64,000 nucleotides of DNA, taken from assembly GCF_057098645.1 (NCBI RefSeq), contig NZ_CM169472.1. The stretch is one strand, 5' to 3'. Below are positions 55,401 through 58,400 of the stretch, in pieces. The first letter of the stretch is position 1, and every line of letters begins with the position of its first letter. Made by a program: the position numbers.

Positions 55401-58400
55401 GATCAGGACATGATCCTGCTGTTGTCAAAGAAAAATGCCGAGGAACGTCTGGCTGCATTCATCTACAACCTGTCCCGTCGTTTTGCCCAACGCGGCTTCT
55501 CCCCTCGTGAATTCCGCCTGACGATGACTCGTGGCGATATCGGTAACTATCTGGGCCTGACGGTAGAAACCATCAGCCGTCTGCTGGGTCGCTTCCAGAA
55601 AAGCGGCATGCTGGCAGTCAAAGGTAAATACATCACCATCGAAAATAACGATGCGCTGGCCCAGCTTGCTGGTCATACGCGTAACGTTGCCTGATTTTTC
55701 CGCATAACTCACTATCCTTCTGTCATATCATTAAATTTTTCTGATTTATTGATCTGGCAGAAGGTTCATCACTGTTTCATTCACCAGATATGGGTTAATC
55801 TTTTAATTACAAACTGCGTTGACAGTTGTTGTAAGGAGACCCTGTATGGCTATGTATCAGAACATGCTCGTTGTTATCGATCCTAACCAGGACGACCAAC
55901 CAGCATTGCGGCGAGCTGTTTATTTACATCAACGGATTGGTGGCAAAATTAAAGCCTTTTTGCCGATCTATGACTTCTCATACGAAATGACCACCCTGCT
56001 CTCCCCGGACGAACGTACCGCTATGCGTCAGGGCGTCATCAGCCAGCGTACAGCCTGGATCCACGAGCAGGCAAAATATTATCTCAATGCTGGCGTTCCC
56101 ATTGAAATTAAAGTGGTCTGGCATAACCGTCCTTTCGAAGCCATCATTCAGGAAGTGATCAGCGGCGGGCACGATTTGGTGCTAAAAATGGCGCACCAAC
56201 ATGACCGTCTGGAAGCGGTGATTTTTACGCCAACGGACTGGCATCTGTTACGCAAATGCCCAAGCCCGGTGTGGATGGTGAAAGACCAGCCGTGGCCGGA
56301 AGGAGGTAAGGCGCTGGTGGCGGTGAATCTCGCCAGTGAAGAGCCGTATCATAATGCGCTCAATGAAAAACTGGTCAAAGAGACGATCGAACTGGCAGAA
56401 CAAGTCAACCATACCGAAGTTCATCTGGTTGGCGCTTACCCAGTAACGCCAATTAATATCGCGATTGAACTGCCGGAATTTGATCCGAGCGTTTATAACG
56501 ATGCCATTCGTGGGCAACATTTGCTGGCAATGAAAGCTCTGCGGCAGAAATTCGGCATTAATGAAAACATGACGCACGTAGAAAAAGGTCTGCCAGAAGA
56601 GGTGATTCCTGATTTGGCGGAGCACTTACAGGCGGGGATTGTGGTTCTGGGCACGGTAGGACGCACCGGTATTTCAGCAGCATTCCTCGGCAACACGGCG
56701 GAACAGGTGATTGATCATCTTCACTGCGATCTGTTGGTCATTAAACCTGACCAGTATCAGACACCCGTTGAACTGGATGACGAAGAAGACGATTAACGAC
56801 TCTTCAATAACTGACAAGGCCCGAGTTATCGGGCCTATTTTTTACTTACTGCTCTTCGCCGCCAAGGAAATAAATTCCCAACGGGATTGCCAGCAACACA
56901 GTAAAGACCAGGCTATAAACAAAAATCATCGATGACTGAATCACATACATTGATGTCGTCCACTCAGACAGCGGAATATTGTACTGTTCTATAACGCCGC
57001 CGATAGTCGCGCGAGTCACAACCGACGCCGCAATAATGAAAACCGCCAACAAACCAAAGAGAAATTTCTTCCCTTTCGCTGACTTCAGTTTCGCCATAAT
57101 CATGATGTAATCCTTGTGCAGACAAATTTCTTGTTACCTAAACGTAACAATACCATGACATTTCACCGTTGTCTGCTCTGAAAACCTCACCTCTTAGCTG
57201 GATTTACAATCAACGCATTGATTAGTTAGCTAATGTTGCTACTTCCTTCCCTGACTATTGATGATCTGAATGAATTGTCGCGGTAAAATAGCACCGCCAG
57301 GGGTTTCCGGCATGACGACAATTATCTGGAGGAGCCTGATAAAACAATGATCGCTGAACTGTTTACAAATAATGCGCTTAATCTGGTCATTATTTTCGGT
57401 AGCTGCGCAGCATTGATTCTGATGAGCTTTTGGTTTCGCCGCGGAAATCGTAAAAGAAAAGGTTTTTTATTCCATGCGGTGCAATTTTTAATCTACACCA
57501 TAATTATCAGTGCTGTTGGTAGCATTATTAATTATGTTATAGAAAACTATAAACTCAAATTTATCACTCCAGGCGTTATCGATTTTATCTGTACGTCCCT
57601 GATTGCGGTTATTCTGACGATTAAGCTATTTTTGCTGATTAATCAGTTTGAAAAACAGCAGATTAAAAAAGGTCGCGATATCACCAGTGCGCGGATTATG
57701 TCGCGCATTATCAAAATCACCATTATTGTGGTGCTTGTTCTGCTTTATGGCGAACATTTCGGCATGAGCCTTTCTGGCTTGCTGACCTTTGGTGGTATTG
57801 GTGGTCTGGCTGTCGGTATGGCCGGTAAAGATATTCTGAGTAATTTCTTTTCCGGGATCATGCTCTATTTCGACCGTCCTTTCAGTATTGGCGACTGGAT
57901 CCGTTCACCGGACAGAAATATCGAAGGTACAGTAGCGGAAATTGGCTGGCGAATTACCAAAATTACGACCTTTGATAATCGTCCATTGTACGTACCGAAC
58001 TCGCTGTTTTCGTCGATCAGCGTAGAAAACCCAGGACGAATGACCAACCGCCGCATTACCACGACCATTGGTTTACGTTATGAGGATGCGGCAAAAGTGG
58101 GCGTTATTGTCGAAGCCGTACGTGAGATGCTGAAAAATCACCCGGCCATCGACCAGCGACAAACCTTACTGGTTTATTTCAACCAGTTTGCTGACTCGTC
58201 ATTGAATATTATGGTTTATTGCTTTACCAAAACCACGGTATGGGCTGAGTGGCTTGCTGCACAGCAAGACGTTTATTTGAAGATTATCGATATTGTACAG
58301 TCACACGGCGCGGACTTTGCCTTCCCCAGCCAGACGCTGTATATGGATAACATTACACCGCCGGAACAGGGTCGCTAAATCAGACATCACTGGCGTTATC

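Follow-up and report, generated by a model that had tools for sequence, protein, structure and literature searches.

Introduction

IS5 is an insertion sequence of ~1.2 kb that carries 16-bp terminal inverted repeats (GGAAGGTGCGAA(C/T)AAG) and encodes the InsH transposase. In stocks of Escherichia coli K-12, IS5-linked rearrangements have reportedly been encountered around the fnr gene. The IS5 copy considered here is annotated in the MG1655 genome (NC_000913.3) as 'insertion sequence:IS5F', at positions 1396044-1397238; it contains insH4 (b1331), lies between ynaI (b1330) and ynaJ (b1332), and is the only feature that the annotation shows in the spacer between these two genes. Sequences such as CTAA/CTAG serve as IS5 targets, and an 'ynaI/ynaJ' copy is among the 11 IS5 elements of strain BW25113, for which a clean deletion of that copy was reported (PMC11677980). 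In another study, recombination between b1331, described as 'the known IS5 element b1331 to the right of ynaI', and a second IS5 beside ogt was found to delete the ynaJ-uspE-fnr segment in some W3110 and MG1655 stocks (PMC2072959). The characterisation of YnaI was performed in K-12 strains, with IS5 unmentioned (PMC3508906).

We compared this K-12 locus with its counterpart in a 64,000-nt stretch of E. coli DNA (the window, which here means the entire stretch analysed). A first-pass annotation of the window had described a spacer of ~240 bp without IS5 at 57104-57346 and had placed an IS5 copy (insH) between ynaI and ynaJ in K-12. Both statements proved accurate: the spacer has exactly these boundaries, is 243 bp long and is free of insertion sequences, and IS5F/insH4 is annotated at the corresponding place in NC_000913.3. 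The finding is correct, ordinary, and already documented in the K-12 literature.

Results

The spacer contains a single, unoccupied IS5 target

The features of the locus are listed below by their positions in the window.

56817-56836, plus strand: hairpin followed by a T-run, 8 pairs (6 G-C), between the convergent uspE and ynaJ (terminator scan)
56846-57103, minus strand: ynaJ, DUF2534 inner-membrane protein, 85 aa (open reading frame; annotated as WP_000605090.1 in strains RM9872 and RM13516)
57104-57346, no strand: divergent ynaJ-ynaI spacer, uninterrupted, 243 bp (open reading frame boundaries and K-12 alignment)
57131-57150, no strand: perfect palindrome TTGTTAC-CTAAAC-GTAACAA (N6 centre), ~30-45 bp upstream of the ynaJ start codon (found by eye)
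57223-57225, no strand: TAG triplet into which a 916-bp element of the IS5 family has inserted in FDAARGOS_943 (TAG is duplicated there; the IS5 target is 1 bp away)
57226-57229, no strand: unused IS5 target TTAG (CTAA on the other strand), occupied by IS5F in K-12 (4-bp overlap of K-12 alignment blocks)
57347-58378, plus strand: ynaI, MscS-family low-conductance mechanosensitive channel, 343 aa (open reading frame; WP_000559900.1 in RM9872, RM13516 and a K-12 derivative)

When the whole window was compared with MG1655 positions 1385000-1492000 by megablast, a comparison proposed in the first-pass annotation, the alignment broke inside the spacer: two blocks abut at 57226-57229, where they overlap by 4 bp, and IS5 is present in K-12. 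The overlap is the IS5 target duplication. IS5F is 1,195 bp long, has the ends GGAAGGTGCGAACAAG... and ...CTTATTCGCACCTTCC, and is flanked by CTAA on either side in K-12, so that the K-12 arrangement ...AACATTAGCTAA[IS5]CTAACTAATCAA... corresponds to ...AACATTAGCTAACTAATCAA... on the same strand of the window. The uninterrupted sequence across the empty site reads GCATTGATTAGTTAGCTAATGTTGC. After removal of IS5F and one copy of CTAA, the K-12 spacer measures 243 bp and is identical to that of the window at 242 of the 243 positions; the sole mismatch is at 57293, where the window has A and four other aligned strains have C. Within the spacer, IS5F has an almost central position, with the ynaJ ATG at a distance of 122 bp and the ynaI ATG at 117 bp.

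No similarity to IS5F or IS5Y was found by BLAST anywhere in the window, and the spacer showed no similarity to IS5, IS2, IS30, ISEc8 or ISEc20. No footprint, whether a duplicated TTAG or residual IS5 ends, was seen at 57226-57229. The site thus has the structure of an empty IS5 target, with a single copy of the 4-bp target and flanks collinear with both junctions of the occupied allele. The window and the K-12 IS5F/insH4 locus share the flanking genes, gene order, spacer sequence, and the accessions of both YnaI and YnaJ (WP_000605090.1 is also the YnaJ accession in a K-12 derivative); they differ in that the window has neither the 1,195-bp IS5 nor the second CTAA, and therefore represents the unoccupied allele. 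Such a presence/absence polymorphism is decided by the alignment itself, and a comparison with chance expectation has no bearing on it.

Transcription of ynaJ and ynaI diverges from the spacer, which serves both genes as upstream region; it is a promoter spacer of the form typical of the species, and it is single-copy (a median of one place per genome among complete E. coli genomes). A 2.2-kb query across it was 100% identical to O145 strain RM9872, where uspE, ynaJ and ynaI are annotated, and a 25-kb query (33001-58000) was 100% identical to O145:H28 strains RM13516 and RM12761; the window belongs to the O145 lineage of these three strains. Over the identical sequence in RM9872 and RM13516, RefSeq names ynaJ and ynaI and annotates no feature between them. 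An Rfam scan of positions 56000-58500 (E<=1) gave no match, i.e., no known RNA element in the spacer, and a σ70 consensus scan of 56700-57500 revealed no promoter-like site at the threshold of the tool.

By eye, two weak putative promoters can be discerned: CAGACA-17-TGgTATTGT on the minus strand at 57175-57147 for ynaJ, and TAAAAT at 57284-57289 for ynaI, the latter located 5' of the ynaI ribosome-binding site (GGAGGAG, 57328-57334). The palindrome at 57131-57150, a candidate operator, is retained by K-12, FDAARGOS_943 and GW-AmxH19, whereas AST85 has a degenerate copy of one arm. The hairpin at 56817-56836 is likely an intrinsic terminator that would bound the ynaJ transcription unit. The minus strand has another terminator-like hairpin at 57312-57295; its quality lies within the range that shuffled sequences can give, and it was rejected.

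IS5F is confined to the K-12 lineage

The distribution of the two alleles was determined in a set of 5,426 complete E. coli genomes, 5,422 of which match the spacer probe. A 200-bp probe (57128-57327) with the site at its centre showed it to be contiguous in 5,055 of the 5,422 matching genomes. With a 300-bp junction probe, composed of 150 bp of the ynaI-side flank and 150 bp of the IS5 end, a complete K-12 IS5 junction was detected in 353 genomes. The unoccupied allele is, therefore, the majority state (5,055 uninterrupted vs. 353 with the K-12 junction).

To characterize the junction carriers, 60 evenly spaced rows were sampled at an E-value limit that passed only junction matches. In 59 of them the junction was full-length, and every one of these had either a K-12-lineage name or a genome of K-12 size (4.53-4.73 Mb); MG1655 variants, DH5alpha, DH1, XL1-Blue, C600, J53 transconjugants, HB101, RP437 and O16:H48 were among them. 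The 60th row was an XL1-Blue record with a partial junction only. Phylogroup-A strains no more distant from K-12 at this locus than its own derivatives (99.0% identity to the window) had no insertion sequence at the site. The uninterrupted spacers spanned identities from 93.9% to 100%, and the most divergent one seen, that of AST85 (93.9%), was also uninterrupted. Based on the distribution of the junction and on the carriers sampled, IS5F is private to K-12.

In ~14 genomes, the site was interrupted in the absence of a full K-12 left junction. Among those inspected, three are K-12 derivatives with an IS5-adjacent rearrangement or a partial junction. Another, FDAARGOS_943 (NZ_CP065615.1), contains at 3098-4014 a different, 916-bp element of the IS5 family, with a two-frame transposase and the ends GCTGTGTCCCTTAAT...; the spacer of this strain also has a 10-bp deletion (in the TATTGATGATC region). 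The junction of the FDAARGOS_943 element was present in one genome only among the complete E. coli genomes searched.

A gain in K-12 most probably accounts for the difference

Direct observations are the location of IS5F, its 4-bp duplication, the occurrence of the two alleles among genomes and the match between the flanks; the direction of the event, a gain in K-12, we infer by parsimony from the distribution within E. coli. We regard it as almost certain that the spacer of the window is an unmodified ancestral empty IS5 site, and that IS5F was gained in the K-12 lineage rather than lost here. According to this scheme, a single IS5 copy (IS5F, insH4) would have entered CTAA/TTAG near mid-spacer in the K-12 lineage, duplicating 4 bp, and the O145-type strain from which the window comes would never have received the insertion.

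The presence of two target sites next to each other raises the question of whether the mid-spacer sequence TTAGTTAGCTAA (57222-57233), in which YTAR-type motifs overlap, is a landing pad that is used recurrently by IS5-family elements. Two unrelated elements of this family did insert 1 bp apart in independent lineages, IS5F at CTAA in K-12 and the 916-bp element at TAG in FDAARGOS_943. However, these are the only two independent events found among 5,422 genomes, which argues for a landing pad weakly, the second of them is unique to one genome, and the three further interrupted cases noted above descend from K-12 itself. A recurrently used landing pad is, in our judgement, distinctly unlikely.

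The opposite direction of change, i.e., an IS5 that was ancestral at the site and was precisely excised in the lineage of the window, would also leave the clean single target copy that we observe, a fit that falls short of direct support. Yet, a single insertion in the K-12 lineage suffices to explain the data, while ancestry of IS5 would require many independent precise excisions to produce the 5,055 uninterrupted genomes, with spacer identities of 93.9%-100%, and to leave the junction in K-12 derivatives only. The distribution effectively refutes excision, the probability of which we consider negligible.

That the absence of IS5 is an assembly artefact, with the repeat collapsed or skipped, is hardly credible either: copies of insertion sequences are a classic cause of assembly errors and the window does have a private oddity elsewhere (a 173-bp inversion at 17193-17365), but the same contiguous sequence is present at 100% identity in the finished sister genomes RM9872, RM13516 and RM12761, the site is contiguous in about 5,000 other complete genomes, and there is no IS5 sequence anywhere in the window.

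Documented and possible consequences of the insertion in K-12

The neighbourhood of the K-12 fnr deletions, with ynaI, ynaJ, uspE, fnr and ogt, is the same in the window; the difference is that K-12 stocks hold the IS5 substrate for these deletions, whereas the strain of the window, without IS5 between ynaJ and ynaI, is missing it. IS5F is a known seed from which laboratory stocks lose fnr and neighbouring genes, an instability that strains with the empty site do not have.

A rearrangement on the other side of the element was seen in a C600 assembly (NZ_CM181231.1, 5030-6916). In this assembly, IS5F adjoins ynaJ on one side and, on the other, a truncated ycjV followed by pgmB; a deletion beside IS5F has removed the whole segment from ynaI, by way of mppA, up to ycjV. 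This is an IS5F-associated deletion on the side opposite to that of the known fnr deletions.

Both K-12 genes keep 117-122 bp of native upstream DNA, so at most their upstream regulatory input and the coupling between the promoters would be changed by IS5F. The core promoters of ynaI and ynaJ are probably intact in K-12. The work on YnaI expression that we found was all conducted in K-12 backgrounds, with IS5 117 bp upstream of ynaI, and since these strains all bear IS5F, regulation of wild-type ynaI may differ. The stronger proposition, that TTAGTTAGCTAA is a preferred IS5-family landing pad and, in addition, that IS5F, by which the divergent promoters are split in K-12, measurably alters expression of ynaI and/or ynaJ there, appears unlikely to us; if it were true, published data on YnaI abundance in K-12 would not be representative of wild E. 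coli such as O145. Otherwise, that K-12 is the exception at this site and the O145-type strain the norm is a point of bookkeeping that matters little.

Other mobile elements in the window

The rest of the window also differs from K-12 in its mobile elements, and three further sites are needed for the comparison.

8804-10113, no strand: IS629 (IS3 family), 1,310 bp, inside ynbD (100% identity over 1,310 bp to the annotated element in LC567824.1)
17409-17420, no strand: junction at which ~8.9 kb of K-12 are absent, namely ynbG and the ydbA pseudogene along with IS2D and IS30C (synteny map)
42527-42569, no strand: Rac attachment site, unoccupied, in the 3' end of ttcA (the K-12 block that ends at 1434959 and the one that starts at 1411941 overlap by 43 bp)

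The window was surveyed by BLAST with IS5F, IS5Y, IS2D, IS30C, ISEc8, ISEc20 and the FDAARGOS_943 element, and was compared with itself for repeats; over its 64,000 nt, there was no match to any of these queries and no repeat was detected in the self-comparison. The sole insertion sequence is the one in ynbD, in agreement with the single IS629 proposed earlier. It has the ends TGAACCGCCCCGGG... and is bordered by a duplicated GAC (3 bp; 8801-8803 and 10114-10116). Its length of 1,310 bp, terminal repeats, 3-bp target duplication and complete identity to an annotated IS629 establish it as a member of that group; the reference is 'IS3 family IS629' with OrfA and OrfB in LC567824.1, from the Stx2a phage Stx2_499. 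RM9872 has three IS629 copies that are 99.9-100% identical to that of the window and are annotated as IS3 family transposase with a programmed frameshift. None occupies the ynbD position in the closest relatives, RM9872 and RM13516, which argues that the insertion in ynbD is recent or private to the source strain.

The cryptic prophage Rac, with intR, xisR, recET, kilR, racR and other genes, is integrated at the 3' end of ttcA. It is absent from the window, as the first-pass annotation had stated: K-12 positions 1411942-1434958 have no counterpart there, uspF follows ttcA directly, and the match to the Rac feature of K-12 is limited to its first 43 bp (att). The situation resembles that of IS5F in that the site is occupied in K-12 and empty in the window; it differs in that what is missing is a prophage of 23 kb, which a tyrosine recombinase integrates at a 43-bp att. 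RM9872 has a Rac-like lambdoid prophage at ttcA (intR, xisR, ralR, recT, recE, kil and others), and its three IS629 copies are part of this prophage. Filled in RM9872 but vacant in the window, the Rac att thus differs in occupancy between members of the O145 lineage.

The IS2 and IS30 copies associated with ydbA were likewise correctly said to be missing; the block with IS2D and IS30C is absent at 17409-17420. It extends in K-12 from ynbG through ydbA (about 1465063-1474003), and all that remains of ydbA in the window is its last 42 bp (17367-17408). This difference is the deletion of a host gene along with its IS copies, and not an empty target site. The claim that the mobile-element content is entirely different from that of K-12 holds for the strain of the window but does not extend to the O145 lineage, the sister strains of which vary; in RM13516, for example, ISEc8 lies within aldA and ISEc20 beside ycjY.

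Further structural differences

At the end of the window (62391-64000), a frameshifted alpha/beta-hydrolase gene and an SDR oxidoreductase gene are found both in the window and in RM9872. The K-12 counterpart consists of only short remnants, ymjD and ymjC, and in RM13516 this place is taken by an ISEc20 insertion.

Directly upstream of pdxI, whose ATG is the reverse complement of 17188-17190, a 173-bp segment (17193-17365; 17192-17366 by BLAST) is the exact reverse complement of the RM13516 sequence, and is inverted relative to K-12 as well. Its left breakpoint lies 2 nt upstream of the pdxI ATG, and its right breakpoint falls in the loop of a terminator-like hairpin (AAACCGCAAC-N10-GTTGCGGTTT). 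As read, the inversion would strip pdxI of its native promoter and Shine-Dalgarno sequence. A search of all 5,426 complete E. coli genomes recovered the inversion junction of the window in not one of them. A recombinase-type invertible switch is not supported, the search having revealed no flanking inverted repeats; the segment may be a true inversion private to the strain, or may have arisen in assembly.

At 19297-19300, the window and RM13516 share a deletion of 4,951 bp (K-12 1458232-1463182), the two K-12 flanks overlapping by 4 bp where they meet. It removes the end of paaF, the whole of paaG-paaJ and most of paaK, and phenylacetate catabolism is probably defective.
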